DNA from: Candidatus Eiseniibacteriota bacterium | GTDB taxonomy: Bacteria; Omnitrophota; Gorgyraeia; 2-02-FULL-51-18 | NCBI GenBank assembly: GCA_035496715.1 | Contig: DATJEK010000095.1 | Location: forward strand, 264-64,263 | Direction: 5' to 3' | Length of the DNA: 64,000 nt | In this document: in pieces, positions 3,901 to 42,217 of the stretch | Numbering within the stretch: position 1 is the first letter of the stretch | How the letters are laid out: the number at the start of each line of letters is the position of its first letter | Notes under the pieces: generated by a model | The model's input: only the letters and a program-made list of their open reading frames with translations | Told to the model about the DNA's origin: nothing | Database searches by the model: none | Position numbers and translations under genes: made by a program

Positions 3901-6900
3901 GAGGCGCGCGAGTTCCTTCTCGTCGAACATGAGCGGCCCGTAAACGGCCGAGAATTCGGCGCGCACGGCCGCGTCGCCGCGCAGTCGGTCGAGCACCGTC
4001 TCGTCCGCGACCCCGGCGGCGGCGGCGACCGTCTGGCGCGTGAAAACGGGGTATTCCGCCTCGGGCGACGAGACGGCGGCGGCCGCGCGCAGGCGCGTCA
4101 CGCGGGTCGAATTCAAAATCGCGGCCGTCCACTCGTCCATCAGGGCGCCCCGCACGGCGAGCCTCACGGAAGCGTTTTCGGCCACCCGGCGCGCGAGCAG
4201 GTGACGATTGACGGAAACCCCGTCGGCCTTCAGCTCGGCGACGATGGTTTCGTAAACCACTTCCCGGACGACGGCGCCGGAGCGGTTGGCGCGGCGCAGG
4301 CCGTCGGCCGCCCGGAGGATGGCCGCGTCGAGCTCGCCGAGCCGCGGGGCGCGGGCGCGCGCCAGGATCCCCGCGCGGTCGGCCTCGGCGATCCGCTCGA
4401 GCCGGGCGACGCGTTCGCGGACCGGCTCGCTGTCGTCGAAATGGACTCGGAACGTCTGCTTCGAGATCTCGAGGCGGCGGTTCAGGCGGTACCCGCGGAC
4501 CGGATAGAACCGCTTCGACGGATCGACTTCGAATTCGCCGATGAGGGCGTCGAGCCTCTGCAGGATCTTCGCGCGGACCGCGGGATTGCCGGCGAGCCGG
4601 GCGCCCTGGCCGAACGCGGGGAGCTCGAAGAGCCGGTTCAGGAGTCCGTCGCTGAGATGCCGGTCTCCGGAGGCGTGGATGTCCGAGGCGGCGACGGCCA
4701 GGAAAACGGTCTTCATCTCCTCGGCGAACGCCGCGCGCTCCGTCTCGGCGAGGATGCCGCGCCGCACGAGCCCGCGCGACCAGTCCCCGATCGGGTCGCG
4801 TCCCGTGAGAAAGCGCGGCTTCTCCTGCTTCCAGCCGTCGGTCAGAAGCCAGGGATCGGTGTGTCCGAGCACGACTTTCGAGACCGCCTCCTGCACGAGC
4901 TGTCCCTCCCCCGCCGCGTGGAGCAGCGCCGGCGCGATCTCCGAGCCGTAAAGCTGGTGGGAGCCTCCTCCCAGATCCGTCGCGTAGCCGATGTCGTGAA
5001 ACGCGTTCGCGTACACGAGGATGCGCCGGCCGCGCTCGCTCAGCGCGCCGATGCGGACGATCAGCGCCTCGAGCCTGCGCTGGTCGCGGACCGCGCCGAA
5101 CTCGTCGAGCGCGAGGAAACCGCTCAAGTCGCCGGCCAGGAGCGCGTCCATCGCGCGCGCGTCGATTTGCAGGTGCTCGGAGCGCGTGCGCCGGCGGCCG
5201 ACCTGCCGCCCCTCGGCGTCGCGCATCGGCCACGATCCCTGGGCGGGGTTCTTCGTGTCGAACGCCTCGAGCGGGAACCCCTGCTCGGCCAGCGACAGAA
5301 GATAGGTCTCGGCGGGAGCCGGGGAGGCGAAAGCCTCGCCGGACGACGGCGTCCCCTGCGGGGCCGGCGGAAAGAAGGGCCGCGCCAGCTCCTCCATCTC
5401 CTCCCGCCCGGGCGTCAGGAAGGTGCGCCGGCTCGGGAGGTAGTCGGAGAGCTTGGAGGTGAAGCCGAGGCGCCGGCCGATCGCGCGGGCGATCGCCAGC
5501 GCGTAGTAACGGATCTTGTCGAGCGCGCGCTCGAAGCGGCTTTCGGTGTGCACCTTGAGATTCGCGGGGAGGAACGAATTGTCGCCGAAGACGAGCAGTT
5601 TCCAGCGCCGTTCGGCGGGCTCCCACGCGAGCACGGTCACGCTCGCGTTCCGGGGGTTGAGCAGCGCCTCGTACATCGGTTTGTATTTCCGGGACGGGAT
5701 CTGGAGCGCCGTCATGACCGCCAGGAGAATCGTCATCCCGTGGGAGCCCACGAGCACGTTCTCGTCGTTCGAACGCGTGACCGCGTCGAGCCATGCCGCG
5801 AGCCCTTCGCGGAAGCGGCGCCCGGAATAGAGTCCGTTCACCTCGTACGCGTCCGGATCGCGCGTGAAGCGGGCCATCCATCCCGGGAAGAGATCGATGC
5901 CGCTCGACACCGGCACGCCGCCGATCGGCTGGATGAGCACCTCGCGGAATTCCTTCAGCATCTCGGGCGCGCGGCCGGAGAGCCCGGCGTAGGCGCCGAC
6001 GGTCTCGTAGGCGCGTTCGAGATCGCTAGAGACGATGCGGTCGAACCGGGGGCCCGCGGCCTTCAGGAACTCCGCCAGCGCGCGCGCCTGCCGGCGGCCG
6101 CGCATCGTCAGCGGCGAGTACGCGTCGTGCGACTGCACGAAGCGGAAAAGGTTCGAGACCGACTCGCCGTGGCGCGCGAGCACGACGACCTTCGCGTCCG
6201 GATGTTCGGCGCGCCAGGCGTCGAACCCTCCGAAAAACCCGGCGGCCGTTTCGAAAACCGGCCGGAGGCGCTGCTTCTCCGACTCGTCGAGCGCGGAGAC
6301 CGCCAGGCGGGCGCCCGCGTTCTCGCCGAGCAGGCGTTCGCGGAGCAGGCCCTCGAGGAACCGCCCGCTCCCGTCCAGGTTGAGGGCCGCGCGCGTCCAG
6401 CGGTATTCGTCGCGGTCCTCGAAATAGAAAGGCTCGAGGCCGTTGCGGATCAGCAGGTAATTCATCATGAACCACGCCAGGCGGTGATGGCCTTCGGCCG
6501 CGTGGGAGCTCTCAAAAATCTTGTCCTGGCGGGACGCGCGCACCCGGGTGAAACCGGGCAGCTCGGCGAGCAGCTGGTGGACGCTGATCACGGCGTACAG
6601 GGCGGCGGCGGCGCGGACCGTCTCGGCAGGCGACGCGAAGCGACGGTTGGCGGCCCTCAGCACGTCCGGCCACACCTCGGCGAGCGACGCCAGACGCCGG
6701 GCGCGTTCGGCGGGCGTGTAGGCGGCGTTGCGCCGGTCCCCGCGGAACAATTCGTAGAGCGTCACGACCTTCTCCCAGGTCAGCGGCGCGACCGGGTCGA
6801 CCTCCCGGTTGAAATAACGGATCGCGTTCCTGAAATCCGCGTCATCGATCAGCCGGCCCGCTTTCGCCGGGTCCAGAGCCAGCCGCGCCCCCAGGGCTTC

Positions 6901-9900
6901 GAGGGGCAGACGCGCGCCGTGGTCGTGCTCGTGGTCATGATCGTGGTCATGGAAGGCGGGCGGCTCCGCGTCCGGTCCGTGCTGCGCGCGGTAGAGCGCG
7001 CGGCGGATCCTCCACTGCACCCACGTGTAGAGCGACGGGAAATAACCCAGGAAGAAATGGAACACGGCGTTCAGGCGGAAAGACTCGCTCGCCATCACGC
7101 CGCCCCGCACCTCGGTGCCGTTCACCTGCAGGGCCCCCGAATAGCCTTCCTTGCGGGCGCCGTAGACGACCCGCGCCAGGCCCAGACGCGCGAGCATCCT
7201 CGTGCACTTGGCGCACGGCTCGAGCGTCACGTAGAGCGTCGTGCCCTTGATCGCGTCGGCGAGGCTCGCGTCGAGCGCGACGAAATCGTTCGCCACGCTG
7301 TCGAAGAGGCGTTCATAGGCCTCGGAGTCGTCGAGATACCGGGCGGACTGGGCGCGCACCGACGCCAGGCGCGCCAGCGCCTCGTCGCGAACCGACGGCG
7401 CGATCGGAGCGGTGCGGGCGATCCGTTCGAACGCGTCGAGAAACGCGAAATGCTCGGCGTGGAGCTGGTTCTTCGCCTTGTTGTACCCGCGGCCGATGAT
7501 CACGCCGTCCCTGACGACGACCGCGCCGACCCGGGCCGAGAAAATGCTCCGCTCCTTCTGCGATTTCCTCGCCTCCTTCATCGCCTCTTTCATGAAGAAA
7601 CGGTCCGGATCCGCGGCGTCGGAGAGCCGCGCGCCCGACGGAGGCAGGAATTCGGGATACGCGGCCATGAGCGAGCGGACGGAGCCGTCGAGCTCGTCCT
7701 GGATCGCGTAAAGCGGCGAACGCGTCCGCTCTTCCTTGAGTTTATGGCCCGCCTTCAGGTCCTTGGCGTCGGCGAACTGGATCCAGAAGCGGCTCTGCTC
7801 GGGGCTCAGGGTCGTCCAGAATTCGAGCGCCGTGCCCGCGTCGAAGGTCGCCAAGGGCACGCCGAGCTTCCTCATGCCCTCCCGCACGGCCGCGCGGAGC
7901 GCTCCCCAGGCGGCGCGTCCGCGATCGCCGCTCTCGCCTTCGGCGAGCGACGCCAGATAGGCGCGGTAGCCCCAGTAGGACAGGTCGATCCAGCGGCGGT
8001 GGTTGTCCGCGACGTCCCCGTGGATGCCGGCGAAATGCCAGTCGGGGTTCGTGACGAGGTTGCCGAAGCGGAGCTCCAGGCGGTCGCGTTTCCGGGCCGG
8101 ATCCGACGGGTCCTGCGCCTCGTCGTTTTTCCGGAACGGGACGAGCATCTTGGCGAGGAAGAGCCTCGCATTGCCCGTGAAGAGGATCGCCGTCAGCACC
8201 GAAAGCGTCTTTCCGACCTCGGCCACGCGGGAGTCGGCGATCCCTTCCGGAAGCAGGAGATTCAGGTGCAAGGAATACGCGCCGCCTTTTTTCCCGTCCG
8301 CGACCCACGGGCCGGTCTGCGCTTCCCTGCCGGGATACGCGGCGAGCGTGGCGTGATCGGGCAGATAGCCGAATTTTCTCAGGAAGCGGTAAATCGCCTC
8401 CTGGTCGCGGGGATCCTCGGAATACGGCAGCGCGTATTCCACGATGCCGCCGTAGCCCAGCGGGATCCCGGCGACGGCCGCGAACGCCTTCGCGTCGGAC
8501 GCATTGAAAACGTCGACGTGGTGCCGCCAGACCTCGACCTCGGTGCCGGCCGTCAGATCCGTCTTCCGCTGGGAGTCGTCTCTCGCGCGGGCCGCGTAAT
8601 CGGCCTTGAGTTTCTCCGTGACGGCGGCCGCGTCGAGGCCGGACCGGAAGCCCTCGCCGCCGTCCATGAGGAACCGCACGCGCGCGGCGGGATACAGGCT
8701 CCGGTAGAGCGACGCGAGCGTCTCGTCGCGGGCCAGGAGCGCGCGGGTCAGGAGGATCATGAGACGCGCCTTTGAATTCGCCCGGAGCCTCTCCTCGAGC
8801 GGCACGGCGTCGGGACGGCCGGCCTCTTTCTCGAGCGCGGCCGCCAGGATCGGGAACACCCGCTCGTCCCGGGCGGCGGCGTGGAGGATCAGTTTGGCGA
8901 CGTTTTCCGTCCGCTCCGACTGGCGCAGGGTCGCGAACGCCTCCACGAGCCCGGCCAGCTCCTCCGCGGAGGGCCGCGGGCCCTGGGCGTACGCCGCGAT
9001 CACGAGTTTTTCGAGCTCTTCGAGGCGCGCCGGGACGTCCTTCACGGGACCGTCCCAGTACACTTCGTCGGCCGCGAGGGCGAAGCGCTCGAGGCCGTCG
9101 GCCAGCGTCGAGGAGGCGAGCCTGGCGCCCCGGCTTTCGGCCGAGGGCCGGCGGAAGCCGGCGATGAGCATTTTTTTGATCTCGGCCGTCTCCGAAGGTT
9201 CTTTGTAAAGGCCGGCCAGCGCGTGAAAGAGCGTCCTCACGTACTCCGGGTCCGCCTCGTAGTCCACCGCCAGGTCCTGGACGCTCGCGAACCGGGCATT
9301 CAGCTCGGCGGCCGTCTCCTGCGCGAGGCCGCGGCCGAAATCGGCTTCGAACTTCTTGAGCAGGTCGTCCATCGCCCCCGCCAGCGACACGGCGCGGTCG
9401 TAGGTCAGCCCGAGCGTTTCGAAATAGACGTAAAGGGAGTTTTTCCGCGCGGCCGTGCGGGCGAAACCGCCGGTGACGTTGGCCGACTCGCCGGGCATCA
9501 GGATCGACAGGAGCGTCCGGCGGGCCTCTTCTTCGAAGTGCGGCGCTTCCCCGTTGGCGCCCTCGGCCATCCGGTGATAAACCAGGGCCGTGTTGCGGAG
9601 CATCGTGATCGGGAGGAGCCCACCCTCCTCGGCGGACAGGCCGAAATAATTGACGGCCTTGGTGAAGTGAAGCCTCGCCGCGGCGAGATCCTTGCCGTCG
9701 AAGAAATACATGGAGGCGAGCGTGTATTCGCGGCGCCCGAGGTCGATGAGGTCCGCCTGGACGTTGTAGAGATGTCCGGTGCGCTCGCGGTTGCGCTCCG
9801 CCTCGACCACCAGGCGCTCGACCCGGACCGATTCCCGTTCGATGACGGCCTCGAGCGCGCGGATCTCGTCCGCGAAGTCGGTATGCGTCTCGCGCAGCGC

Positions 9901-12900
9901 CCACTCCACCCACTCGCGCACGAGCGGCTCGGCCTCGCTCGGGTCGAAATAGGCTTCCTTGAGGCGCGACACCGCCTCGGGCCCGCCGAGGCGGCCCAGC
10001 GTCCGCGCGGCGTTGGCGCGCACGCGGTAGTACTCGGAGGAGCCGGACAGGAGCAGCCGGCCCATCAGCGCGACGAGCTCGCGCGCCTCCGCCGGTTCGA
10101 GCATCTGCACGGGGATGCTTCCGAGGCGGTAGGCCGCCGCGCGCCGGGTGGTCTGGTCCCGCGAAGACAGCTCCTGTTTCAGCTGTTTCAAATCCCTGAG
10201 ATAGAGCTCGCCGTTGGCGTAGTCGAAGACCGCGATCTTCCGGGCGAGGGCGTCGTTCGTGTTCTTGGTCAGAAGGTATTCGTAGCGCGCCTTGAGAGGG
10301 CCGGAGAACTCGGAGGAGATGAGACGGTTGAGATGCCGGAGCTCCTCGAGGTTCATCCTCGAGACCACTTCGGCGAACTCCGACGGGTGGCGACCCTCCC
10401 TTTCGAGCGTCTCGAACACTTCCAGCAGATTCGAGAGCGTCCTCTCGTTGATGCGGCTTCTCAGCTGGGACTTGCCGAGATGGGCCGGCGGGATGCCGTA
10501 CACGTCGATCAGGGTTTCCTGCCGGGCGATCGTCGCGCGGGCGATGTTGATCGTCGAATACGGGATGAAGAGGATCTTCTCGCGTTTCATGAGCTCCACC
10601 GCCCGCGTGGTGACCGCGTTCGCGGACGCTTCTATGACGATCTCGCCGCGGAAACGACGCACGCTGTCTTCGTCGAACGTGTGAGGGGCCGTGTCGACGA
10701 CCAGCGCGTTGGCGTCCTCGAACTCCTGCGGCAGGAGCGGCTCCGATCTCTCCACGCGCCGGACCTCCGCGCGCTCGGGCAGGTGGTTCATCTCCACGAT
10801 CTGGTCGAACGGCATGCCGTTGACGAGCTTCGCGTTCACCCGTCTCAGGACGGGCCACGACAGCGGCTGCTGGCTCTCGAGGACGGTTCCCGCTTCCTGA
10901 ATGCCGTGGATCTCGACGCCCGTGTCGAACGCGTAACCGTCCATCAGGCTCGTCGTCGCGGTCACGCTCTTGATGCTGTACCCGAGGAAGGCCACGCGAA
11001 GCCGGCGGCCTTCCATGAAGAGCTTCCCGTCCCCGCGGAGGTAGGGGCTCTTCGCCAGGAACGCCAGCGCCGCGGCCATCCCGTCGCCCAGGCTCGTCAT
11101 GTAACGCGGGAGGCCCCCGCTGCTTTCGGAAACGCCGACCACCGGATGCGAAACGCCGCCTCGCGCGCGGCCGCGCTTCACGACGCGGAGAATGGCGTCC
11201 ATGTCCTGGATTTCCAGCCCCTGGCCGGGGCCCACGATCAGGTGCCGGCCCAGGACGCCCTGTTTTCTCATGGTTTCCGTCCAGCGAGCCAGCACGCGCG
11301 TCTTGTCCGCTCCGGGCGAGGCGACGATCTGCATCTGGGCGCCGTCCAGGAAGCTCGAACCCCTCCTCAGGTCGTCGGCGGTGTGAGCCAAAAGCGGCAC
11401 GAAAGTCAGGTCCGCGGCGCGCGCCCGCCGTTCGGCGTCGTCGGCGGGGGCGAAATAATCGAGCGGGCCGTCCGCGATGATGAGGTTCGCCGGCTGGCCG
11501 GCGCCGTAGATCGCCACCAGCGACTCGAACCCGTCCTTGTCGTCCGCGGCGGCGGGCGAACGCGAAAGATAATAGATCCTCCAGGGCATTTCGGCCGGGC
11601 GGCGTTCGGGCGCGATGCCCTGCATGAATTCCGCCGGGTCGAGCGAGACGAAGGAAACGGCGCCCGCCGTTCGGGGCAGGAAGGACTCGCTCCGGACGAT
11701 CAGTTTCCGCAGGTCGGCTCCCGGCAGGAGGGCGCGAAGATTTTCCTCGGCGGAGAGACGCGCGCCCGCCGGAGCCTCTTCACCGGCCGGAGGAACTTCC
11801 TCGTCCGCCGCCGTCGCTTCGGACGGGCCGGCCCCGCGGGTGCGCGCGCGCATGCCCACCGTCTGGAAGGTTTCGGGACTGCCCGAGAGCTTGAGCCGCT
11901 TGAACAGGTTCCGCACGTCGACCGCCGTGAAGCGGCCCTCCGAGATCGCGGCGATTTCGTCCGGCGCGGGACGCTGGTCTTCGTGCGCGGCGCGGTAGCG
12001 GGCCACGAGCGCTTTCAGGTCGGCCAGCAGCTCGGCGTCGGGACGCGCCCCCGCGGGGACCGGCCTGGCCGTGCGGCCTTCGACCCGGATGCCCACCGTT
12101 TCGTAGGTCTCGGGGCTGGCGGCCCTCTTCAGTTTCCCGAACAGCGAGCGGATGTCCGCCGCGCTGAACCGGTCTTCCGAATGCTCGGCCAGCTCGTTGG
12201 GCGTCGGCAGCGGTCCGTGCGCGGCTCTCCAGGAGAACACGAGGTCCGCCGTCTGGTTGGCCGAAGGCTCGTAACCGTTGGCGGTCCGGAACTGCTCGAC
12301 CATCCCGATCACGGTCTCGACGTCGGGGTGCTCGGCGTGTTCGGCGCGGTAATCGGCGACGAGGGTCTTGATCTCGGCCAGCGTCTCCGCGGGCGTCTGG
12401 GTCGCGGGCTTGATGCCGAGCTCCTGGTACGTGACCGGCTTGCTCGCCTTCTTGAGCTTGTAAAGCAGGTTGTAGATGAGGCTCTTGGTGAACTGGCCGT
12501 CCGAAGCGGCGGCGACCTGGTCGATCGAGGGCTGGGAGCCGGCGGCGAACTTCGTGGCGATGATCGCCTTCAGGTCGACCAGGAGCTCGTCGATGGATTT
12601 GTATTCCGAGACGACGCCGGGCGCGTCCGCGTCGTACGGGATGCCGTGGAAGTCCATGTTGAGCCGGATCGTGTGCGCGTCGACCGCGCCGTCGGACTGC
12701 GCGGCGACGTTGTTGGCCGTGGGCCGGGTGCCGGGGGGCACTTTCTTCACCAGTTTCGACAGGTACTCGATCCATTCCTCCTTCGTGCGGCGCGTTTTCA
12801 GGACGTACGTGGGTCCGTCGCCGTCGGCCGTGAACGGGATCGACTCGTAGTCGAACGCGGCGTAAATCTGGCGCACGGAGAGGGGGCTCGCGAACGCCCG

Positions 12901-15900
12901 GGCCGCCTCGGCGAGGTTTTCGACGGTCTTGCGCTGCGAATCGGGAACGCGCATGGCCAGCGCCCGCAGGAGGACGATCCATTCGTCGCGGTCCCTGCGG
13001 GACTTCGCCAGGAGCCGTTCGATCTCCGGCTTCTCCAGCTCCTGCACGGCCGCGTTGAAGTCGCCGGAACGATGACGGTAGACCTGGTCGGCGGTGATCG
13101 GATTCGGGAACGCTTTCGACTCCTCGGCCACGTTCTCGGGCGTGCGCCGGGCGGGGTCGGGAATACGCATCGCCAGCGACCAGAAGAGCGTGTTCCAGTC
13201 GTCGGGAGTCTTGGCGTCCTTCGCGAGAAGCCGCTCGATGACCGGGGTCTCCAGCTCCTGGAGGAAAAGGCGGTACTCGTCGGCAAGCATCCGGAACGTC
13301 CCCGTGTCCCTGCGCTCCAGGGCGCCGTAGAGCGCGTTGACGTAGAGCGTGTGCGGAGACGGCAGGTCGGGACGGGCGGCGGGCAGCGGCAGGCCCAGCT
13401 CGATCGACTTGCGGGCGATCCGCGTGTACCGGAACTGCCCTTCGACGATCTCGTCGTAGAGTCGGGTCATCGCGCGCTGTTCCCGCGCGCCCGCATGGAA
13501 ACGGCGCAGGCGCGCCAACTTGAAGAGGAGCGGAATTTCCGCGTCGGTCGGAGCGGTCGAAGCCGACGCCAGGTACTCGGCGAGTTCCGCCGGCGCGAAT
13601 TGGCGCAGGTAGCGGTTGCCGCGGACGTGGTCGACGATCTGCACGACGCCGGGCCGGCCGCGGCGGCCGGCGCGCGTGACGACCTGGCGCTCGGCGCGCT
13701 CGGTGCGGCTGTGGTGCGTGCTGAGCACGATGAGCCCGGCGACGACGCCCAGCGGGCCGTGCGTGTCGTAGGGTTCGTACATCTCCTTGTCGAGCTTGAT
13801 CTCCTGCCCGCGGCTGGCGACCTGCGCGGCGATCGTGACCGAGAACGCGTCGCCGATCTTGTTCCAAAGGCCCGCGTCGCGGTTCTCGTCGCGGCCGTCG
13901 ATGACGCGCACCGCGTTCGGCTGCAGGAAAGGCCGCCGCGCGTTCGCCTGCTGGATGAGCTCGCGCAGGCGCTCGGCCTCCTTCGGCGATTCGGCGTTGA
14001 TCAGGATCGGCCGGCCGCTCGCGTAGGCGCTCTCGACGAGCTCCACGAGGTAGGCGTGCTTCTCCTCGATCGTCATGAAATAACGGACCGGCTTCTCGTC
14101 GCGGCGGCTCCGGTAGACCTGCGGGAGCTCCTTGATGCGCGCGCGGTAGAGCTGCCGCATCTCCTCGCGCGTGTGATCGCCGATCACGCCGACGACGGCG
14201 CTGAACGGGAGCCGGTTGTAGAATTCGGGCGTCGTCATCACCGACTCGATGACCGTCTCGCTCTGGACCGGGATGCCCTCCTTGATCTCGAGGAACGTGT
14301 GGATGCTGCGGCCCCAGCGCTTCTGCAGCTTGGTCTCGCCGGTGTTCTCGTCGCGGATCATGACCTTGCCCTCTTTCACGAAATAGCTGACGTCCTTCTC
14401 GAAGACCTTCATCGCCTCCAGGGCGGCCAAAAGCATGTCGAAGAGATCGCGCGAGCCCAGGAGCGCGTCGAGATTCTTCACGTCTTTCAGTCTGTCCCGC
14501 AGGCGGCGGGTCGTTTCCTGCCGGTCCCCGAGGAAGCGCACCGACAGCGGCTCGACGGCGTAGTCGACGTTCTCGCGCAGCGAGCCGGCCGCCGCCCAGA
14601 TCGTCTGGTACACCTTCGCCATCTTGGCGTCGAGCCGGTAGACCTTGCTGAAAAACGCCAGCGGATCGTTGACGACATCCAAGAGCGGCGTGTCGGCCTC
14701 CTCGACCAGGAGCCACGGCGGAGTCCCCTCGGGATGAAGCTTTTCCCCCTCGGTGCCGAACCAGTCGCTCATCCAGAGGAAGATGAGCTCGTCGTACGGC
14801 CCGTAAACGACGTCGGACTCCGCGAAGATCTTGCGGATGCCGGCGCGGCGCGTCATCACGCTCCCCTGGCCCTTGGCGGCCAGCGGACGCAGGTGCTTGT
14901 TGGTCTTGCGCAGGTTGTTCGGCTCCTCGTCGAACTCGTAGGCGTTGTTGTTCAGCACGGTCGCGACCTTGAGAGCGAGGCGGTGCAGGATGGCGCCCGC
15001 CACCTGCGAGTCGCGCGCGGTCAGGAGCGCGCTCCAGTCGTGCACCTCGACCTTGCGGCCCGAGAGCACCTGCAGATAGGAAGCGAGCACCGTGGTCAGC
15101 GTCTTGCCTTCGGAGGGCTGCATCCCGACGATGTTCTTGTTCTCGAGGAGGAGGAGCGCCGCCTGGATCTGGTTCCTGGCCGGTGCGCCGCCGACGTACT
15201 GCACGGTGTCCGGATGGACGCGTTTCACGCTCGACAGGCCGATGCGCTCGTCGTTGCGCTCGATCTCGGCGCGGATTTCGCCCTTGCCTCCCCGGCCCGT
15301 CTCGCGGTGGCGGAAACCGGTCACCTGGCCGGACTCGATGACGGGCGTGTACCCGGCCGGGAGCGTGGAGCTCTGGATCTTGCCGCTTCGCATCACCACC
15401 TCGGCCTGGCCGCCGGGCAGTTCCGCGTGACGGATCACGTACGTGACTTCGTTCTGCGCGGCAATGCGCCCGGCGGCGACCGAAAAGAGCGCCACCGCGT
15501 ATCCGGCGTCCTCGGCGGTCATCTCATGGCCGCGGAGCCGCCGCTTCAGCTCTTCCGACTTTTGGAAGATCGCCTCGTCCGAATCCGGCTGGATCTCCGG
15601 CAGGCGCCGGTCGCGCTCGCGCAGCACTTCCTCGAGAGGGAATCGGCCGACCATGTCGCCGGCGGCGACGGGCGCCGGAGGGATCGAAAGCTCGGCCACC
15701 TCGTCCCTCAGCCGGTCCACGAGGGCCAGCCTCGCGCCGGCGACCTTCGTGATCGTGGCTTCCGCTTCGTTCACGGCGTAGGAGCCGGCCGGCAATTGGA
15801 TCTGCTCGAGATAGGAGCCCTGGCCGGTGAAACGCGTGAAAAGCGTCCTCTCCGATTCGCCCTGGCCCCACTTCAGGCGGAGCACCCACTGCGCGGGCGG

Positions 15901-30900: not shown

Positions 30901-33900
30901 CATTATTTTCACGCCCAAAAGCCGCGCGACCCCGACGACCAGCCCCGCCGTCCTGCCGTCCAGGACCTGCAGAGCGGGATCCTCGGAACCCTCGATCAGA
31001 AACAGCCACGCGCCGGCCGCCGCGTCGGGAACGAACGGGTTGTTCTTGCGCATGATCTGGTCGAGATGGTCCAGCGCCTTGGCGTCCCAATGAAATTCTC
31101 CGACCGCCCGGACGTCCCGGCCCATCATCTTGAAATCCTTGAGCACGGACCGGCCCTGGATCTGCTGAAGCCTGGGGCTCCCGCTGATGTTCGCCGCGTT
31201 GGCCTTCCGGCTGAGTTCAAAGTAACGGTCGATGGTTTCGCGTTTTTGCCGGATCGTGGCGAGACGGGCGCCCAGGCTCCGGACCCACCCCTCGAACCGA
31301 CGGATCCGCCCCTGGTCTTTGGCGACGGGGACGCCTTCATACCGCAGCGAAACGCCGCCCGCCAGCCGCGCGCCCGCCCATTGCCGGGCGAAACCGTATT
31401 GCCGGATCATCTCCTGGCGCACGCGCCGCTGGCGCAGGATCTCCACGCGGACTTCGTGCCTGGAAATTTTTTCGTAATCGAAAACGTCGTGGCGGTCGTC
31501 GCGGAATCCGAGCGTGAGCACGTGATGGATCTTCGCGCCGTAAAGCGTGCCGGCGCCCCATTCCCTCTCCAGCCGCTGGATCGCGAAAACCCTCAGCTCC
31601 GCGCCCACTCCCTGCAACGCGGGCCCGGCGGTGCGGGGCCGGTTCCAGGGCGCGATCTCGATGCCCGAGCGGTCGCGGCCGTCCACCGCGAGGGCCGCGT
31701 ATCCTTCGATCGCCCGGTCCGACCACACGAAATACAGTCCGGACAGGATGGTGTCGTCATTTTCGTCGAGCGCCTGCATGAAGACGTCGATGTCGGCCGC
31801 GTGGACGACGGCGCGTTCGCCCTCGAACCAGTCCGCGAGGCGGTCGCGGGCTTCGGAACGCAGGCGCTCGGGCAGGTCGGAGGCCCGGATCACCGGCAGC
31901 GCCTCCATGACCGGCTCATCCCCTTCGCGGTTCAGGACGTAAATCTGTCCGGATTTTTTGACCTCCGCGGAGAGCCTCGCGCCGGAGAGAAAATTCTCGA
32001 CGCGGTCCATCACTTCGAGCCGCTCGGATTCCGTGCCGCCGCGGACGACGACCCGGACCGGGCTTCCCTCGTCGGCGCCGAGCGCCAGGAGGTCGAGATG
32101 ATCGAAGCCGTCGGCGAGGATGCCTTCCTTTTCCAATTCGAAACTCACGCCCGGGAATTCGTCCGTCCTCAGCAGCTGCGCCAGCGACACCGACGGGCGC
32201 ATGTGCAGGCCGCCCTTGATCCCGACCGTCACGGTCTTCGAAAACGCCTCCCCGACGGGCCGGCCTTCCTGCGCGAGACGCGCTCCCGGCCCGGCCGAGG
32301 CCCGGGCCTCGGCGAGAATCCGTTCGCGCTCCGTCCGGGTCCAGAAATACCGCGCGTACGCCCGCGCGGCCATCGCGCGCAGCTGCGGATTGAACGCCGC
32401 GGGGTTTTGCGCGATGCGGGCGCGGAACGCCTGATCGAGGCCTGTCAGCGAAGGCGGCGCGCCGAACTCCGGCGCGAGCGCCTCGGCGAGATAGATCGCC
32501 GCGATCTCGTAGATCCCGCCCCGGGCGGCGGCGTAGGTCGTGAGCGTGTAGGCCGGGAAGGGGTTGCGCGTCGGGTCTTCGTCGGCGACCGCCCGCAGGC
32601 GCGCCTCCAGCTCGACCATGGCCATCACCAGCACGCGCCGGCGTCCGGCGTCCGGTTCGGCGGAGAGGCGCGCCAGGAACGGGTTCGCGAAGGGCGCTCC
32701 CGCCTCGTCCCGGTCGCGCAGCGCGGCGCGAACGAGCGGCTCGGCGTCGGGGCCGATCGCGTCGCGGCCCGTGCCGCGCAGTTCGTTCAGCCGGAACCCG
32801 AAACGGAAAAGGTCGAAATGATTCAGCTCCTCGCCGCCGGCCGCCGCCCAGTAAAGCCGGCTCAGCGCTTCCGCGCTCTGCAGCGGGCCGAAGAAAAAGA
32901 GCGAGTTCCACGCGAACGGATCCGCGCGGACCCCCGCCGGAACGGGCGCGCCGCGCTGCGTGAGTCCCCAGAGCTCGCGGTAGAGGTCGACCGTCTTGGC
33001 CTCGTGCGCGGCGATCGTGGGCACGTACTGCCCGCCGGCGATTTCCGTGACGGGTTCGATGATGAAACGGTCCTGCGCGGCCTGCGCGCCGCCGAATAGA
33101 CCGGGCGCGCCGTTCCGGACCGGCGGATCGAGGATACGGTACACGCGCGCGGTGTTCCCGTCGGCCGTCGTCTTTTCGTAGGTGCCGACGACCGGCGCCG
33201 TGATGAGCGGGGGCCTCCCCTGTTGGATGAGCTCGCCCGCCATGCGCAGGATCGGGCGGCCGACGTACAGGCGCTTGGAAAGAAAGAGCGGCGCCAGCGA
33301 TTCGACGAAAGCGCCGTAGAGCCGGTCCGTGTCGACGGGGGTTTCGGCGGCGAGCGCGGCCGGCGGCTGAAAAGAGGGATCGAGAACGCGCGCCAGCGGA
33401 AGCAGGCGTTCCCCGGCGGCGGCGCCCGAAAGCCCGGCCGGCGAGGCGGCGCGCGTCCAAAGCTCGCGGAACACGGGCTCGAATTCCCTGCGATACCAGT
33501 CCGCCGTGTCGAAAAAGGGCGAGGCGGGGTCCTGGCGGAAACCCCGCTGGACGTCATCGAACGCGCGAAGCACCTGCTGGCGCTGGCCGGCGTTCAGGTT
33601 GAAGCGCTTGAAGAGGGCGGCGATCTCGCGGTCCGCGAGATTCCGGGTCGCCAGGAGTCCCGTCAGGGCGGCGTCGCTGACACCCTGACGCCGGGCCTTG
33701 GCGTCGAAATCGCGGACCTGCGCGCGAAGCTTGACCTTCAGCGCGTCGAGCGCCTGCGGCGGGACCCGCCATTCGGCGAGCCGGGCGCCCGCCGGGCGCA
33801 CGCCGACCGGCGGTCCGTCCGTGGGCCTCGGATAGGTGCGGCTGACGATGGAGAGCTCTTCCGCGAACGAATTGTGCACCTCCCGCAGGATGGCGCGGTT

Positions 33901-36900
33901 GGCGTGCAGGCGGAGGAACCCGGCGATCTCGCTTTCCGCGCGGCTCCGGGGCGCCTCGTCCTGCCGGTACCACTTGAACGCGTGGAGGAAGGAAAAGTCC
34001 TCGGTCCTCTTGACGCCTTCCGTCATGAACGTGACTTCGGAGCCGGCGTTGAGCTCTTTCCAGTGGTTCGAAAGGTATTCGCGCACGAGAGCCAGCGCGT
34101 CGACCAGGGACCGCTTGGCCAGCCGCGTCTGGGCGTCGGTCGCCTTCGCGTCGAACGCGGAGGCGGCCACCGTCTCCTGGAGCCGCCCGAAGAGCGCCAT
34201 CGTCTCGTCGCGGGAGAGGTCCGAGGCCGTCTTCAATTTCCAAAGCACGCGCACGTACGCGGCGATGATCTGTCCCTTCACCTTGGCGGAAACGGCCGCC
34301 GCGTACGCGTCGCGGAGGATTTCGAGATCCTCGCGCGAGGAGGCGATGTCGCCGAAGAAAAGCGGATAGATGTAGTTCTCGTCGACGAACTCCGTGATCT
34401 CGCGACGGTAGAGGTCCTGGGCCGCGGCGTTTCCGTCGAGATGGGAGTGCGTGAGCTCGAGGCTGCGGACGAATTCCTGCAGGTCCCTGCGGACCTCGGG
34501 CTGCCGCGGCGAATAATTTTCCGGAGCCAGCCTCAGGCGCGCGAAAGCGCCCTTCAGCGCGCGGAACCGTCCATCGAACTCGGATGCGATGTAGAGCTCT
34601 TTGGCGAATTCGGGATACAGGAGCGCTTCCGCCTGTTCGGCGACGGCCTTGCGGAAGCGGACGGGCGCCTCCCGGAGCTCGTCGGGAAGCGCACTCTGCC
34701 GCAGGACGTCCTCGGCGTAGCGGCGCAGCGCGGCGCGGGCGGCGTCTTCGGAAAGGTCGGCCTGCGTTTCGACGCGCTGGCGCAGCGCCGGCAGGCGGCG
34801 CCGCAGCGATTCGATGAAAGACGATTCGGGATTGGAAGCGTCGGCATGGACGTAGAGCCGGAAGGCCGTCAGGCCCCCGCGGATCCCCTCGTCCTGGCGG
34901 GAAACCGTTTCCTGATAGCGCGCCAGCCGCTCGCGGGCCGCCAGAAGGGACCGGTATTCGGGAATGATGCCGAAATTATAGCGCTTGAGGCTCTTGCCGG
35001 GCAGCATCCCCTGCACCTTGGAGCGGACCTTCTTTTCGAAAAGAGCGTCGTGCTCGGAGAAGCGCTTGCCGCCGTCCTCCCGCCACTGACGGCGCCATTC
35101 CTGGAGAGATTCGAGGAGCGAGACGATGTCGGCCTCGGCCGCGCCGGATGCTTGAAAAAGCCTGAGCCGCTCGGCGATCCCGCGGATCGTCTCTTCCGGC
35201 ACGGCCGGCTTGTAGCCGACGCCTTTGAACGCCGTTCGCATCTGGGATTCGGCGACGACCAGCTTCTCCGCCCTCTCGACGGCGGTCGCCAGCGTCTGGC
35301 GCGCCCATTCGGGATACTCCTCGCTCGAAAGGACGCGCCCGGCGAGCCTCGCTCCCAAGGCGGCCGGCAATCCGGCGGCGCGGCGGAAAATTTCCAGGCG
35401 GCCGTTCCCCCAGTCCCCTTTCATGAAAAACTGGGCGAACCGCAGGCGGAACGACACCGGCCAGGTCAGCTCCTCCGGACGGAACTCGAGCGGCGCCTGC
35501 TTGCCGAGCCACTCGTTGGACGACGGGAACAGCGGGTTGCCGAAACGCGGCAGGAGGAACCGGAAGCGGCTGTCCTGCTCGTTGTCGCCCACGAGATAGG
35601 CGCCGTTTTTCAGGAGGTCGCGCTTGAGCGCGTTGACGGCGAGTATCTCCCTCTCGCCGCGGGCGCCGTCGGCGCGAAGGTCCTGACCGAGATACAAATC
35701 CCGGTCATCCGCGAGGAGCTCGTGATAGTAGTTCGGCGCCTTCTCGAAGAAAAGGTCGAGCCCGCCGCGGGACCGCAGGTCTTCGAGGACGGCGTCGGGC
35801 AGAGAGGACGCTTCCAGCGATTCCGTGTGGGTCGAGCCCAGGAAATAAACCGTGCGGGGCCGCGCTTGGCTCTCCGACGGATGGCGCCAGCTGAAGCGGA
35901 TCTTCCAGGCGTCGTCACCGAGGGGCAGGATCTCGAGGTCGGTGATCGGCCCGCCCTGGAGGGCGGCCATGCGCTCGAGCGAGACCAGGAAAAGCTCGCG
36001 AAGGTTGACCTTGAGCGTCCCGAAGAGCGCCTCGAGCGAGCTCTCGCCCAGGACGGGAGAGGCGACGATGGCGCGCATGAGGGCGGCTTCGCGCTCGTCG
36101 CGCTTGGGCACGCCGCGCGCGAACTCGAACTGGTCGGTCATGACGAGGAGGTCGGGGTTTCCGGCGACGAACGGATCCAGGGCGTTCGCGGCGGAGTTGA
36201 CGTAGAGGCCCGCTTTCGGAGAATTTCCGGCGTTGACCACGGAGCGGATTTCGCCGAGGTAGGCGAGGCGGCGTCTCCACTCTTTCGTTTCGAGCGATTC
36301 GCGGCCGGTCGGCTCGATCCGCTGAAGAGCCAGGCGCGCGCCCGCGCCGGCGGCGGCCGCGTCGCGGGCCGCGAGATACGCCGCGAACGGCCCTTCACGG
36401 AGCGCGGCGAGCCGTTCGCGCGTCCAGCCGCCCGCCTCGACGTCGATCCACGCCACGTCGCGGAAAGGTTCCTCGCGGTACGTCAGGATGCGCTCGATCT
36501 CGCTTTGGCGGTTGAGATCCTTGGGCGTTCCCGCGAGCTCCGGCCGGTGCGTGCGCGGATAACCGAGCGCGAAACCAACGTTGCGCGTGAATTCCTCGTC
36601 GTCGGTGTAATCGGTCAGGCGCGGCTCGTACAGCGGCTCGATGAAAATCCCCCAGCCCGTGCCCTCGAGCTGGCGGAGCGCCGTCTGGTAGGAACGCAGG
36701 CCGTGCGGCGGCGTGCTGACCAGCTGAAGGCGGGCCGTGGCGAGCCCGCGGTCGCGGAGGACCTCGGGGATCGTCTTGTCGCGGCTTTCGACGAGGTTGG
36801 CCTTCGTGTGCTGCGAGGCCTTCTCGAGATAGATGATTGTTTGGCCGTCGATCCGTGACGGCACGCCCAGATGGTTGAGAAGCTTCTCGATCAGCTCGGC

Positions 36901-39900
36901 CTCGGTCGTGCGCGATTCGCCGGCGGCCGGCGCGCGGTAGCGCCGCACGAGCGCGCGGAACGCCTCACGCTCGGCCGCCTCCATCGGGCGCGAAACGTTT
37001 TCGACGTACGAGTGCTCGATCAGGGCGAAGAGGTCGTCGGTCGCGCGGCCGATGCCGCCGGTCACGATGACCGGGACTCGCGATTTCGCGGCGCGCGCTT
37101 TCCAGAGCGACGCGAAGGCCTCGAACGCGCGCAGGTCCTGCTGGCCGAGCAGCACGTAAATGTCGGGAAGCTCGCCGGCCGGAAGCGGGTGTGAAACGGA
37201 CACGGCGTCGACGTACGGCTGGATTTCGCGCGCGGCGTCGGCTCGCGCCCGGTCCAGCGAGAGCCGGGCTCCCTGCCGCAGCACGAACACGCGGCCGTTG
37301 GGATCCGGGTGGCCCGCCGGGACCGCCAGCGGCGCGTCCATGCCGGTGAAGCCGAGCTCTTCGAGGATTTTTCTGGCGATGGAATTCATCCGGGCGCCGC
37401 CGCCCGGAAGCTCGGAAGCCGCGATGCGCAGGATCACCGTCGCGCCGGGCTTCATGACGTCGCGCACGTCGGACAGCGCCCTGCGGAAATCTTCGGGGTT
37501 CATCTGGTAATTCAGGGAGCGCGATTCGTAGTACCCCAGGATCTTGTTTTCCCGGAGCGTCGGGTCCCCGGGCGCGAGGTTGGGCACGTTCCAGACGAAC
37601 ACGTCCGCGTCCGCCGCGCCGGGGAGGCTCTTCGGCGACCGCGCCTTGACGACCGTGGCCCGGCCGCGCGCGGCCGCGTCCTCGAGAAGCGCCAGGCGCG
37701 CCCGCGCGTTCATGACCTTGAGAAGGGTCAGGTCGTACGCCTCGACGTGTCCGGCCCGGGCGGCCAGAAGCGCCGTCACCTCGCCGCCGCCCGCGCCGAT
37801 TTCGACGGCCGACGCGCCGGCGGGAACGAGGTCGGCGTTGGCCGGATCGTTCAGGACGTCCAGGAGAAGCCGCGTCGACGGATCGTCGGGTCCGAACGAA
37901 CCCGGAAACGTGAAGCCGCGCTCGGGCGAACCCGCATACTGGCGGACCGTCGTCTGGCCGAAGAAGCTGTCCCCCGCGTAGGGGTCGTCCGCGATGTTGA
38001 GCGCCCCGAACGGCGGCAGCGCGCGGTGATGCTCGGCGATGAAATCCTGCAAGAGCCTCTTCACTTGGTCGTCGCGCTGGCCGTACCAGCCCATCACCGC
38101 GCGGCCCCAGTCGTCCGCGGACCGCTTGAAGAGAGCCGCCTGGTCGTTGCGAAGGAGCGGATAATACAGAGTCTTCTCTCCGGGCCGCGACCAGACCAGC
38201 GCCAGCGGCCGCTTTTCGTGGGTCAGAAGATACAGGTCCTTCTCGAGCGATCCGAAGTCGCCGCTCTGCAGCATCCGCTCGGCGGCGTCCAGATAGGGCG
38301 CGGCCAGCCTGCGGGTGTTTTCCGCGAAGAAAACGTCCGCGGCGCTCTCGAGGGTGTCGAGCGTGGGTGAAACTTTGACTTTCCCGAATCCCGCCGCGCC
38401 GCCCGCCTGCCCGGTGGGGACGGGCTCGATGACGGCCGTCGAATCGTCGATCCCGAACGCCGCGAGAAACTGCCGGACCGGCATCTCGGGCTCGATGTCC
38501 GCGAAGACCGAACGCGCCGGCGCGGCGGTCGACAGCCTCGCCCCCAGGAGCTGGTGCTGGTGAAGCAGGCGCTCGACGTCCGATTCCTTGGCCATCCAGA
38601 CGCCGCGGGTGTACCGCTTCGTCGGGCGCGGGGCGCCTTCGGACGCGCGCACGGTCAGGACGTCGCGCAGCGGAAGCTTCAGATCGCGCAGCGAGACGTC
38701 GCCGCGGCTTTCGATCATTTTCCACTGCGGCGCCTCCGTGACCGGAACGGGCTTCACCGCGATCACTCCGACGGTGCGCTCCAGAAGCGCGTGCTTCAGC
38801 CATTCGGCGCTTTCGATCGACGCGGCGATCGATTCGTCGGTGTCGGTCTCGTCGCGGAGCTTCAGGAGATACAGGCCCTTCGGCAGTCCCTGGCCGTTGT
38901 CGTCGCCGATCTTCAGCAGCATGTCGAAACGGTTGCGCGTCCCCTGGTCCGTCGGCACCTCGAAGTCGAACCCGATGACCTGCACGCCGCCCAATCCCTC
39001 TCCCATGATTTCGTAAAGCCGGGAGGCCGTCCCCATGCGCCGCGCGTACAGCGCCAGGCGCGGTTCGGTGGGGTTGGCTCCGAGGTCGCGCATCAGCCGG
39101 CCCATGCCGGAGACGTTGAAAAATTTGGCGGCCATGGCCTGCAGCGCGTGGTGCGAGGGGTCGCCGTTCCAGACCACGTTGACCCCCTTGCCGATGTCCT
39201 TGCGCACGCGCTCCGTGATGATGTCCCTCTGCTCCTGCACCGTCTCGGGCACGGGGATCGCCTGGAAAAAACCGTTCACGGGAGAGGCGGCCAGCCGCAG
39301 GTACGAATGCGACTTCTTCACTTCGGTCAGGTCGGCCAGCCGCGGAGGACGGTCGATCCAGCTCTGCACGCGTTCGGGCCGCGGCCGCGGCAGTCCGGCC
39401 GGCAGCGCGTGCTCGGTGTCGTAATTCAGCGTCGCGATGCGCACCTGCGTCCAGCCGTGGTGCGGCGTCAGGCCTTTGCGCGGGATCAGGCGCGGGCCGC
39501 CGGCGGCGAGCACGATCCCCTGGATGTTGATGAGAAGCTCTTTCCTCAGCCAGTCGGCGCTTTCGATCTGCCGGGACAGCTGCTCTTCGGCGCGGGAGAC
39601 CATCGCCGACGGGGACACCTCGAGCGCGTCCTCCTTGGCTTCCACGAAATAGAAACCGGGCGCCAGGCTGAGGCGGTTGCGGGGACCGACGCGCAGGACG
39701 ATGTCGATCTCGTTGGTCTGGCCTTTCTTCGCGGGGACTTCCAGCCCGAGCGTCACGACTTCCGCGGCCTCGGGCCCTTCGCCGAGAATGTCGAGAAGCC
39801 GCGCGGCCGAAAAAAGCTCGCCCGCGATTTCCCGGATCTCCCCCGGATTGGGGCTCGAACCGATGCGCCTCAGGATGCGCACGACGCCCGGCACGTCCTG

Positions 39901-41892: not shown

Positions 41893-42045
41893 TTAGACTA
41901 TGAATATATAAATATATTTACTAAGAGACGCGAATAAAAAATACGCGCCAAAATAAACTCTCGAGGAGTCCATTTTTTACCTTATTTTGCCGTTTTCAGG
42001 GTTTGAAAATAGAGACCGATTTTACCCATGTCTATGCATGGCATA

Positions 42046-42074
42046 AGTTTACATGACCCCCTAGCGGGATGCAA
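42046..42074 (-). promoter_or_regulatory. Candidate sigma70-like promoter for giant gene 1: -35 TTGCAT (42069-42074), 17-nt spacer, -10 TAAACT (42046-42051)
   Basis: Read on the reverse complement. Each hexamer matches consensus at 4 of 6 positions. Several other AT-rich hexamers in the island are equally possible. Confidence 0.2.
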
Positions 42075-42115
42075 AAAAATGTGAACTCGTAACACTAATA
42101 TATGCATAGACTTAC

Positions 42116-42206
42116 AAAAAAAGGAGGCTACGCCCCGGACGATGTGGGATCGGTGTTCTGGAACCCGGCGCCGTCAGGCGGCGGGACAGATTCGCGAGGC
42201 GTAGCC
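42116..42206 (-). terminator. Candidate intrinsic terminator for giant gene 2: 9-bp stem (GGCUACGCC / GGCGUAGCC) enclosing a structured ~63-nt loop, followed by UCCUUUUUUU
   Basis: Stem arms are at 42198-42206 and 42126-42134, with the U-tract (plus-strand A7) at 42116-42122. This lies 12 nt after the TAA stop at 42218-42220. The large loop contains an internal 5-bp hairpin (CGCCG-ccuga-CGGCG). Confidence 0.35.
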
Positions 42207-42217
42207 CAGACTTTTCG

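Follow-up and report, generated by a model that had tools for sequence, protein, structure and literature searches.

The DNA analysed here, referred to as the window, is a stretch of 64,000 nt (positions 264 to 64,263 of contig DATJEK010000095.1, assembly GCA_035496715.1) from Candidatus Eiseniibacteriota bacterium, which is placed in the Omnitrophota by GTDB. The window has a G+C content of 68% and is nearly filled by two giant open reading frames (ORFs) on the minus strand, p1 and p2. The subject of this study, p1 (928..41892, minus strand), extends over 13,654 codons from a GTG without an internal stop, and its true start is probably the ATG at codon 17. The G+C contents at its codon positions 1, 2 and 3 are 0.70, 0.46 and 0.88, respectively, which is the signature of a genuine coding sequence in a high-GC genome, and all of its domain matches, more than 15 of them independent, fall in one frame. 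The second ORF, p2 (42218..64000, minus strand), comprises at least 7,247 codons with a GC3 of 0.91, and its 5' end lies beyond the window. A preliminary description of this DNA had assigned a series of nucleotide- and nucleic-acid-modifying modules between positions 4575 and 38000, which correspond to residues 1298–12440 of p1, to a single chain. This was borne out, as one stop-free ORF with high GC3 holds every module that was named. Approximately 15 different domain families were found in p1, none of them dominating. A repetitive adhesin-type giant was rejected, as BLASTP comparisons revealed neither internal repeats in p1 nor similarity between p1 and p2.

Cassette boundaries in p1 are marked by a strict, lineage-specific peptide, GARL[A/S]. 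The tetrapeptide GARL is present 32 times in p1 against 1.4 expected occurrences, and GARL[A/S] 30 times against 0.29 ± 0.54. The GARL copies start at residues 628, 1117, 1541, 1851, 2180, 2702, 3203, 3304, 3507, 3541, 3877, 4318, 4338, 5371, 5796, 6017, 6879, 7121, 7518, 7771, 7787, 8167, 8719, 10043, 10922, 11420, 11659, 11668, 11860, 12430, 12886 and 13282. In p2, GARL[A/S] occurs seven times (residues 1333, 3219, 4511, 5254, 6012, 6131 and 6766), with 0.10 expected. None of the 32 delimiters of p1 is located within an interval supported by Pfam or PDB matches (P 0.0036), and random cuts would enclose the domains less closely than the observed cassettes do (P 0.005). Delimiters thus bracket an HPr-like domain (101 residues), a deaminase (239), a Fic-fold domain (192), a phosphatase together with an HD-like region (570), a pair of LOG-like units (1,033) and a membrane block (253), as well as each methyltransferase, the SecA-like motor and the HEAT repeats. 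The first delimiter, GARLA (39997..40011, minus strand; residues 628–632), aligns column-for-column with GARLA or AARLA in the relatives L004, L006 and L008. Three further delimiters define the region of the deaminase and phosphatase, namely a GARLS directly before the deaminase cassette (7621..7635, minus strand; residues 11420–11424), a GARLA between the Fic-fold and phosphatase cassettes (6301..6315, minus strand; residues 11860–11864) and the GARLA that closes the phosphatase and HD cassette (4591..4605, minus strand; residues 12430–12434), where the range given in the preliminary description ends. The structural model of the Fic-fold cassette is confident throughout, including its terminal blocks, indicating that the delimiters abut a complete folded domain.

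The nucleotide sequence of the delimiters is not conserved. Five codons are used for the Arg, the remaining positions vary synonymously, and this free variation of the codons shows that selection acts on the peptide; a DNA repeat or recombination scar was rejected for the same reason. A relaxed pattern returned the same 30 sites, so p1 has no decayed delimiter copies, and the idea that degenerate delimiters fill its long cassettes was likewise discarded. The sequence contexts of the delimiters are linker-like and rich in Pro, Ala and Gly. Four pairs of delimiters lie only 9–34 residues apart (residues 3507/3541, 4318/4338, 7771/7787 and 11659/11668). These pairs enclose mini-cassettes that are too short for folding, and two of them directly follow the membrane block and the deaminase.

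Relatives of p1 carry motifs of their own at equivalent positions, including RSExR, SSPV, RTSP, KPFAPDM, GTRL and AARLA. RSEL was found 16 times in P0038 and 14 times in P0057, with 0.31 and 0.29 occurrences expected, while other relatives contain 20 copies of SSPV (0.07 expected) or 15 of RTSP (0.04 expected). In nine of 13 relatives the protein's own motif is positioned 1–10 residues before the same phosphatase module, and in others it flanks the Fic-fold module. Within the clade of p1, the members of which were compared over their first ~3,900 residues, the first two delimiters fall in the same alignment columns as GARLA, AARLA or GTRLS. Each lineage has a preferred variant; L004 has GARL, L005 mostly GTRL, L008 AARLA at five of five sites and L006 a mixture, and the delimiters of L002 are GGRLA and GSRLA. 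Both motif types are found in contexts rich in small residues, and the flanking residues were not decisive in attempts to assign a single cleavage position. A literature search on these motifs or on polyprotein processing in Omnitrophota returned nothing relevant, and, as far as the searched literature goes, this rule seems not to have been reported before.

The cassettes defined in this way contain the nucleotide-directed modules of the preliminary description, most of which keep their catalytic motifs. Of the two tandem LOG-like domains reported there, the first (26575..27330, minus strand; residues 4855–5106; PF03641, E 2e-18) is related to type-II LOG proteins (5wq3, 5zi9 and 1wek) and aligns to their structures in two halves flanking a ~50-residue insertion. 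From these PDB alignments, both of its motifs are retained, as TGAGPSVM and, with a Thr to Ser change, PGGFGSLDE. The second unit (25858..26097, minus strand; residues 5266–5345) aligns to residues 166–242 of 5zi9, the C-terminal half of the LOG fold. In its motif, SGGVGTMNR, an Arg stands where the Glu is expected, and it is probably non-catalytic.

The deaminase cassette (6919..7623, minus strand; residues 11424–11658) is TadA/CDA-like and resembles the TadA structures 2nx8 and 2b3j. Its domain (residues 11428–11588; PF00383, E 9e-16) aligns to TadA structures with HAE at residue 11478 and PCAKC at residue 11559. The long insertion that had been described between HAE and PCxxC was confirmed; it measures ~50 residues, and a homologous insertion-bearing cassette is present in P0050. 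The first LOG-like unit and the deaminase each differ from their families by an extra insertion of about this size. A match of the deaminase to toxin deaminases of the MafB19 type (E 4e-12) was obtained as well. Its cassette ends, immediately before the doubled delimiter (GARLPLEALGARLA), in a His/Asp-rich run, HDHDHDHEHDH (6919..6951, minus strand; residues 11648–11658), which is possibly metal-binding. The PGAM-type histidine phosphatase (branch 1; 5593..6186, minus strand; residues 11903–12100) was identified with PF00300 (E 8e-29), in agreement with its original assignment, and contains both the RHG of LARHGES and the second catalytic His in GSHGMT.

The evidence for the remaining enzymes that had been named is graded. 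Three class-I S-adenosylmethionine (SAM) methyltransferases had been proposed, of which the third (17593..17985, minus strand; residues 7970–8100) exceeds the Pfam cut-off (PF08242 over residues 7976–8088, 31.4 bits versus 30), displays motifs I, post-I, II and a later motif (DLGGGDG, LLERN, QADLTE and LEPGGYFI) and matches the PADLOC mad2 model (E 4e-11). The first methyltransferase-like module (37393..37806, minus strand; residues 1363–1500) falls below the Pfam cut-off (E 0.012) but is backed by PADLOC (mad2, E 2e-8) and contains motif I as VEIGAGGGE and, further on, VMKPGATVIL. The second module (19618..20025, minus strand; residues ~7290–7425) is tentative, with a subthreshold Pfam match (E 0.0035) that covers its C-terminal half only; LVVGAGGGE, FDLVLV and LLRRGGKGFV were recognised by eye. 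PDB sequence searches with the methyltransferase modules gave nothing useful. The concentration of nucleotide-directed enzymes in one ORF is real, but the term nucleic-acid-modifying is not established for the methyltransferases because nothing identifies their substrates. The HD phosphohydrolase is, next to the first and second methyltransferase-like modules, the third tentative member of the set. The region concerned (4840..5028, minus strand; residues 12289–12351) has the motif FHDIGY followed by LGHTD and homologous cassettes in P0041, P0056 and P0059, but its Pfam score is below the cut-off (PF01966, E 0.005, 17.5 bits versus 22) and there was no PDB sequence match. Compared with known families, all of these modules are embedded as cassettes, and their closest relatives are cassettes of other giant proteins.

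Several modules of p1 had escaped the preliminary description, namely a family-specific N-terminal domain, DUF218, HPr-like, α/β-hydrolase, SecA-like and Fic-fold modules and HEAT repeats. By inspection, p1 starts with a signal-peptide-like segment, MKLRALSAVLIAAFFCQDLASA, which is followed by QG after the putative cut (41773..41844, minus strand; residues 17–40), and similar hydrophobic N-termini are found in relatives. The N-terminal domain follows (40012..41715, minus strand; residues ~60–627), running from IHIEDAHDSIEAQ to ITGGFHTEG with the pattern IxDAHxxxEAQ ... GGFH. These ~570 residues have no Pfam or NCBIfam match. The AlphaFold2 (AF2) model of the domain has a mean predicted local distance difference test score (pLDDT) of 76.9, and the best Foldseek matches are EreC, an Ere-like protein and ChaN (E 0.058), which belong to one hydrolase superfamily. 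As no fold match is significant, the Ere/ChaN resemblance is a lead only; the domain might conceivably act as a processing enzyme.

Further along the chain are a DUF218 domain (36661..37071, minus strand; residues 1608–1744; PF02698, E 2e-6, 28.0 bits versus a cut-off of 27.6), an HPr-like domain (32008..32241, minus strand; residues 3218–3295; PF00381, E 2e-7), which lies in the 101-residue cassette between the GARL copies at residues 3203 and 3304 and retains the His of GLHMRP, and an α/β-hydrolase of the FrsA/S9/S33 type (29020..30003, minus strand; residues 3964–4291; E 1e-9 to 4e-9). Hydropathy analysis revealed a membrane block of ~6–7 hydrophobic helices (18655..19338, minus strand; residues 7519–7746) that occupies exactly one cassette, between the delimiters at residues 7518 and 7771. 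The last helices of this block are weakly LspA-like (PF01252, E 4e-4, below the cut-off), with SNVTE and NPADFAI at the positions of the LspA Asp motifs. Located after the membrane block is a SecA-like motor (13591..15201, minus strand; residues 8898–9434) composed of DEAD, preprotein-binding and NBD2 domains (PF07517, PF01043 and PF21090), which matches SecA in the PDB with E 7e-35 over SecA residues ~72–580. There is no match in p1 to the SecA wing/scaffold domain (PF07516); the 608 residues that follow the SecA-like match are devoid of domain matches and could hold a very divergent scaffold. A contig scan with the SecA module detected only an ordinary 999-residue SecA of an Omnitrophota metagenome-assembled genome (MAG). 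HEAT repeats are found at 9892..10188 (minus strand; residues 10569–10667; PF13646, E 5e-10). The helix block and the signal-like N-terminus support the original designation of p1 as a membrane protein, with hydropathy and inspection as their basis.

The cassette between the deaminase and the phosphatase (6316..6879, minus strand; residues 11672–11859, 188 residues) yielded an AF2 model with a pLDDT of 90.4 and a predicted template modelling score (pTM) of 0.88. In Foldseek its top 24 PDB matches are all Fic proteins (prob 0.91–1.00, TMq 0.45–0.51), with non-significant E values of ~0.07, and a profile built from relatives of the cassette matches FICD (4u04, FICD/HYPE) exactly on the active-site helix (E 0.06). 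In p1 the corresponding motif is HAAEGHHRLAW (H-A-A-E-G-H-H-R...N...G), and the consensus of the family is HPAxGHHRLAW. The relatives share the highly conserved core HPAxGHHRLAWFxMNYxLIRNGYxPFYF, which occurs as a tandem duplicate in P0038 and P0055. The cassette does not match the Fic consensus HPFx[D/E]GN[G/K]R, and because of this difference we refer to it as Fic-fold and not as a Fic enzyme.

An exhaustive HMMER search with residues 11400–12450 returned 1,620 matches, the best of which are embedded in proteins of 2,000–8,000 residues with 31–49% identity. The matches nearly always consist of one stretch, and separate sets of proteins match the deaminase, Fic-fold, phosphatase and HD-like cassettes. 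The nearest relatives of the modules thus reside in different long proteins, mostly as a single stretch, from which it follows that the modules shuffle independently. A word-indexed search with a 999-residue query from deaminase to phosphatase revealed no long relatives and two weak matches to TilS-deaminase proteins. All named cassette relatives are from Candidatus Omnitrophota MAGs. Partial versions of the p1 toolkit do recur in other giants; P0050 (4,308 residues) combines the insertion-bearing deaminase with HAD, two methyltransferases, HD and GH77, and P0032 (4,989 residues) combines the phosphatase with two LOG units and kinases. The nucleotide-directed enzymes of p1 are independent cassettes drawn from a shared pool and not a co-evolved pathway, and the independent shuffling argues against the functional coupling of modules that had been suggested. 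Small homologues of the phosphatase and Fic-fold cassettes that apparently stand alone were also found, several with N-termini that look signal-like on inspection and two ending in -AA.

The N-terminal domain and the arrangement of the locus are shared as well. The N-terminal domain is 43% identical to P0188 over 99% coverage (E 6.5e-138), its named relatives are from Candidatus Omnitrophota, and an alignment-based scan found 294 relatives in metagenome contigs, where a scan with a single protein gave none. A p2-like ORF is located upstream of the p1 homologue on the same strand in L004–L009, the six closest loci with an informative ORF in this position (46–55% identity, 49–65% GC), and in L002, while the L003 contig is too short to show it. 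These upstream ORFs, which have at least 2,800 residues on the contigs that are long enough (L004, L005, L006 and L008), end, like p2, in ...GSAA, ...GSSA, ...ASSA or ...GAAA. Their presence in L002 and L004–L009 shows that the order p2 then p1 is conserved. In L002 (ENA k141_229662, 51% GC; 1574..5587) the p1 homologue is a 738-residue gene that is followed, after 70 bp, by a further ORF with GGRLA, which is either a natural split of a giant or an assembly error.

Both giants are almost free of cysteine. There are three Cys among the 13,654 residues of p1 (0.02%) and one among the 7,247 of p2 (0.014%), while the adjacent ExbB-type protein has three in 239 (1.25%); this is an approximately 50-fold depletion, and many relatives contain 0–0.25% Cys. 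One Cys of p1 is in the signal-like segment. The other two serve as zinc ligands in the deaminase, and the mature chain contains no others. A C-terminal signature, hydrophobic(-5)-x-x-[A/S]-A-COOH, is present in p1 (...TAQAA; 931..945, minus strand), in p2 (...VGSAA; 42221..42235, minus strand), in two of the small stand-alone cassette homologues and, among the 41 relatives with 2,000 residues or more, in 25; the remaining relatives that do not end in [A/S]-A were probably cut by contig ends. The signature might be a sorting or degradation tag.

In addition to its seven GARL[A/S] copies, p2 contains an HPr cassette, a GHMP-kinase N domain, membrane clusters at residues ~1909–2191 and ~2867–3040 and weak matches to ParB_N and to glycosyltransferase/phosphorylase families, and its C-terminus reads ...AVGSAA. 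Between p2 and p1 (41845..42217) there is an AT-rich island of ~300 bp, with a GC hairpin and then a T-run just after p2; this terminator-like hairpin and the island indicate that p1 probably has its own promoter. A MotA/TolQ/ExbB proton-channel gene (117..836, minus strand; 239 residues; PF01618, E 4.5e-28) lies 92 bp downstream of p1, and the giants may be coupled energetically to an envelope-spanning system. An exact look-up of the protein encoded by this gene returned no record. Very long plus-strand ORFs run antisense to the giants, for example 45869..60046 (4,725 residues) and 8881..17319 (2,812 residues), and are most likely not genes but shadows of a gene with GC3 ~0.9.

Two published surveys describe giants with which p1 can be compared. 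West-Roberts et al. 2023 (10.1101/2023.11.21.568195) reported Omnitrophota giants with many membrane helices, a divergent SecA without wing/scaffold and, among their frequent domains, methyltransferase, HEAT_2 and Lysine_decarbox; their "Archaeovorin-type" example is a 39,678-residue protein of Velamenicoccus archaeovorus. With these p1 shares an N-terminal region without known domains, a membrane block ahead of SecA_DEAD and preprotein-binding domains that lack wing/scaffold, the methyltransferase, HEAT_2 and Lysine_decarbox (LOG) families, the high divergence of its domains and its Omnitrophota relatives. In contrast to them, p1 has 13,654 residues, compared with their threshold of >30,000, and has no NUDIX, C39 or S8 peptidase domain, and a glycosyltransferase signal is weak and limited to p2. 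The TadA-like deaminase, histidine phosphatase, Fic fold and HPr of p1 are not listed in their text. The type II secretion system/type IV pilus (T2SS/T4P) or glycoside hydrolase genes that flank their giants are also missing from the 64-kb window, in which p1 is accompanied only by p2 and the MotA/ExbB gene.

Nielsen & Lui 2026 (10.64898/2026.06.07.730766) defined a "multi-enzyme metabolic cluster" class among long proteins of at least 10,000 residues, with methyltransferase, HD, HAD, signal-peptidase-II and HEAT content, and found that 80% of long proteins are sequence singletons and that 65% of their catalogue repeat at least one Pfam. Like the members of this class (class 1), p1 exceeds 10,000 residues, contains many distinct Pfams with none dominant and combines a signal-peptide-like N-terminus with putative transmembrane segments, a combination of signal peptide and membrane helices being present in 39% of theirs. 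It further shares content of their Module 1 (methyltransferase, HD and HAD), the HD of p1 being tentative, signal-peptidase-II-like helices, HEAT repeats and the status of a singleton with a conserved architecture logic; it is non-repetitive, in contrast to the 65% that repeat a Pfam. The delimiter motif, the cysteine depletion and the conserved C-terminus are not mentioned by West-Roberts et al. 2023, Nielsen & Lui 2026 or Seymour et al. 2023, the last of whom described giant ORFs as poorly conserved and poorly understood, and the N-terminal family domain is likewise unreported in Nielsen & Lui 2026. Taken together, the cassettes, the N-terminal domain, the termini and the composition tie p1 to the giant proteins of the Omnitrophota.

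The best explanation of p1, which we hold with evenly balanced confidence, is that it is a cassette-built member of the giant SecA-bearing multi-enzyme proteins of Omnitrophota and that its chain is processed. For the processing into autonomous proteins taken by itself, our confidence ranges from tentative to evenly balanced; it is favoured by an invariant motif, the lack of decayed copies and the concerted change between lineages, as ordinary linkers behave otherwise. In this scheme p1 would act like a polyprotein. A lineage-specific factor, probably a protease, would recognise the delimiter and cut at or beside it, approximately 30 autonomous enzymes would be released, and these would act beyond the producer's cytoplasm, either on its surface or within a host or prey cell to which it is attached. 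Such a site of action is suggested by the signal-like N-terminus, by the scarcity of cysteine and by the position of modules dependent on SAM, nucleotides or phospho-transfer ahead of the membrane block. The scheme would explain why these modules lie on the side of the membrane block that is predicted to be exported, a localisation paradox also noted by West-Roberts et al. (10.1101/2023.11.21.568195). The stand-alone cassette homologues and the consecutive ORFs of the L002 homologue support the autonomy of the cassettes. In its general form, our tentative proposal is that the giant ORFs of this class may be bacterial polyproteins and that their lineage-specific delimiters (GARL[A/S], RSExR, SSPV, RTSP, GTRL and AARLA) may be the sites of a co-evolving protease, which would convert a 41-kb gene into ~30 autonomous, exported, cysteine-free enzymes. 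The preliminary description had the modules fused into one protein, which is correct for the ORF, while the inter-cassette motif raises the possibility of separate mature products. In viral polyproteins of the picornavirus type (3C/3CL), units are separated by a strict recognition motif that co-evolves with its reader. Like these, p1 is one long ORF of unrelated units with a short, strict motif that changes in concert between lineages; unlike them, it lies in a cellular, chromosome-type context, has 13,654 residues, a putative signal peptide and a membrane block, its cleavage is a prediction, and no protease was found in it.

A number of points weigh against the processing reading. No C39, S8 or CPD (cysteine protease domain) was detected in p1 by Pfam scans, and the protease candidates within the chain, which are the α/β-hydrolase, the LspA-like helices and the Ere/ChaN-like N-terminal domain, are weak. 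The topology is a prediction from hydropathy and inspection. About half of p1 (6,990 residues in ten cassettes) has no Pfam or NCBIfam match, the NCBIfam scan of these ten cassettes having returned no matches. A word-indexed search with the SecA module identified no giant relatives but only ordinary or short SecA-like proteins of up to 1,101 residues with 24–31% identity, and the window, in which there is no marker gene, exceeds its relatives in GC content (68% versus 36–67%). Moreover, the delimiter could be an uncleaved linker or a translocation signal. The chain may also stay intact as a multi-enzyme scaffold tethered to the membrane, a possibility that we regard with some doubt. GARL[A/S] would then be structural or co-translational punctuation, for example a linker recognised by a chaperone or by the SecA-like motor as it translocates the chain step by step. 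This reading accommodates the presence in the chain of a SecA-like motor with a preprotein-binding domain, the Pro/Ala/Gly-rich, linker-like contexts of the delimiters and the lack of a protease domain in p1. Published work also treats such giants as membrane-anchored, with whether and where their products are cut being a stated gap. Yet ordinary linkers drift, whereas the motif is invariant at 30 sites without degenerate copies and changes in concert between lineages, and the stand-alone cassette homologues, some with signal-like N-termini, and the split ORFs of L002 also weigh against an intact chain.

Alternatively, p1 could be a multi-effector toxin of the MARTX/polymorphic toxin kind (Zhang et al. 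2012, PMC3482391), with deaminase, Fic-fold, LOG, phosphatase and HD modules delivered to a competitor or prey and freed after the Leu of GARL[A/S]. We consider this unlikely. Such toxins resemble p1 in their very large size, in the exchange of cassettes and in their unrelated effector-type modules, deaminase and Fic included, the export of p1 being a prediction. MARTX effectors are released by cutting after a Leu before a small residue, and by analogy GARL[A/S] resembles the CPD sites. Cysteine depletion, which is typical of proteins exported unfolded, the MafB19-type deaminase match and the episymbiotic or predatory lifestyle that has been proposed for Omnitrophota are also compatible with a toxin. 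However, the domain scans identified no RTX repeats, CPD, Rhs, PT- or LXG-type trafficking domain or type I secretion system component, no immunity gene was detected in the 64-kb window, and most cassettes are without a match or look metabolic or regulatory, as do HPr, DUF218, the GHMP kinase and HEAT. The preliminary description had instead likened the modules to a defence or nucleotide-signalling toolkit, that is, to an anti-phage system whose sensor and effector enzymes are joined into a single membrane protein. Known defence systems do include LOG-like, deaminase and HD domains, and weak PADLOC matches to dCTP deaminase and mad2 were obtained. But the match to the dCTP-deaminase model extends over 32 residues surrounding the PCxxC of the deaminase, the methyltransferase matches are generic, and PADLOC-DB 2.0 gave no match for the LOG pair, the phosphatase and HD cassette or the Fic-fold cassette. 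Domain scans of p1 revealed no cyclase, TIR, SAVED, nuclease or other signalling partner, the relatives are Omnitrophota giants in which the content is shuffled, and the adjacent genes encode a second giant and ExbB and are not defence genes. The lack of specific PADLOC homology, the shuffled cassettes and the absence of defence neighbours largely refute this interpretation, which we judge very improbable. Finally, the many long ORFs in other frames at 68% GC might point to a spurious ORF or a chimeric assembly, but the contrast between GC3 and GC2, the number of independent domain matches in frame and the recurrence of the N-terminal domain, the delimiters and the two-gene synteny on independent contigs make such an artefact next to impossible.

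Giant genes encoding more than 10,000 residues occupy a considerable part of the small genomes of Omnitrophota, and what they do is a recognised gap in knowledge. Our analysis of p1 provides a well-resolved example, in which most of the nucleotide-directed modules have their catalytic residues and only the two zinc-ligand Cys are tolerated in a chain of this length. It also yields a simple sequence rule, namely that a lineage-specific delimiter partitions the chain into domain-sized cassettes, and this rule appears to apply family-wide. If the chains are not cleaved, the motif would still be a handle on the folding or translocation of megadalton chains. If the delimiters are processing sites, the giants could be split computationally, their products searched for in proteomes and the cuts tested with small reporters. 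Processing at these sites would represent a polyprotein strategy in cellular organisms and would supply the "cleavage points" that are missing from the literature.

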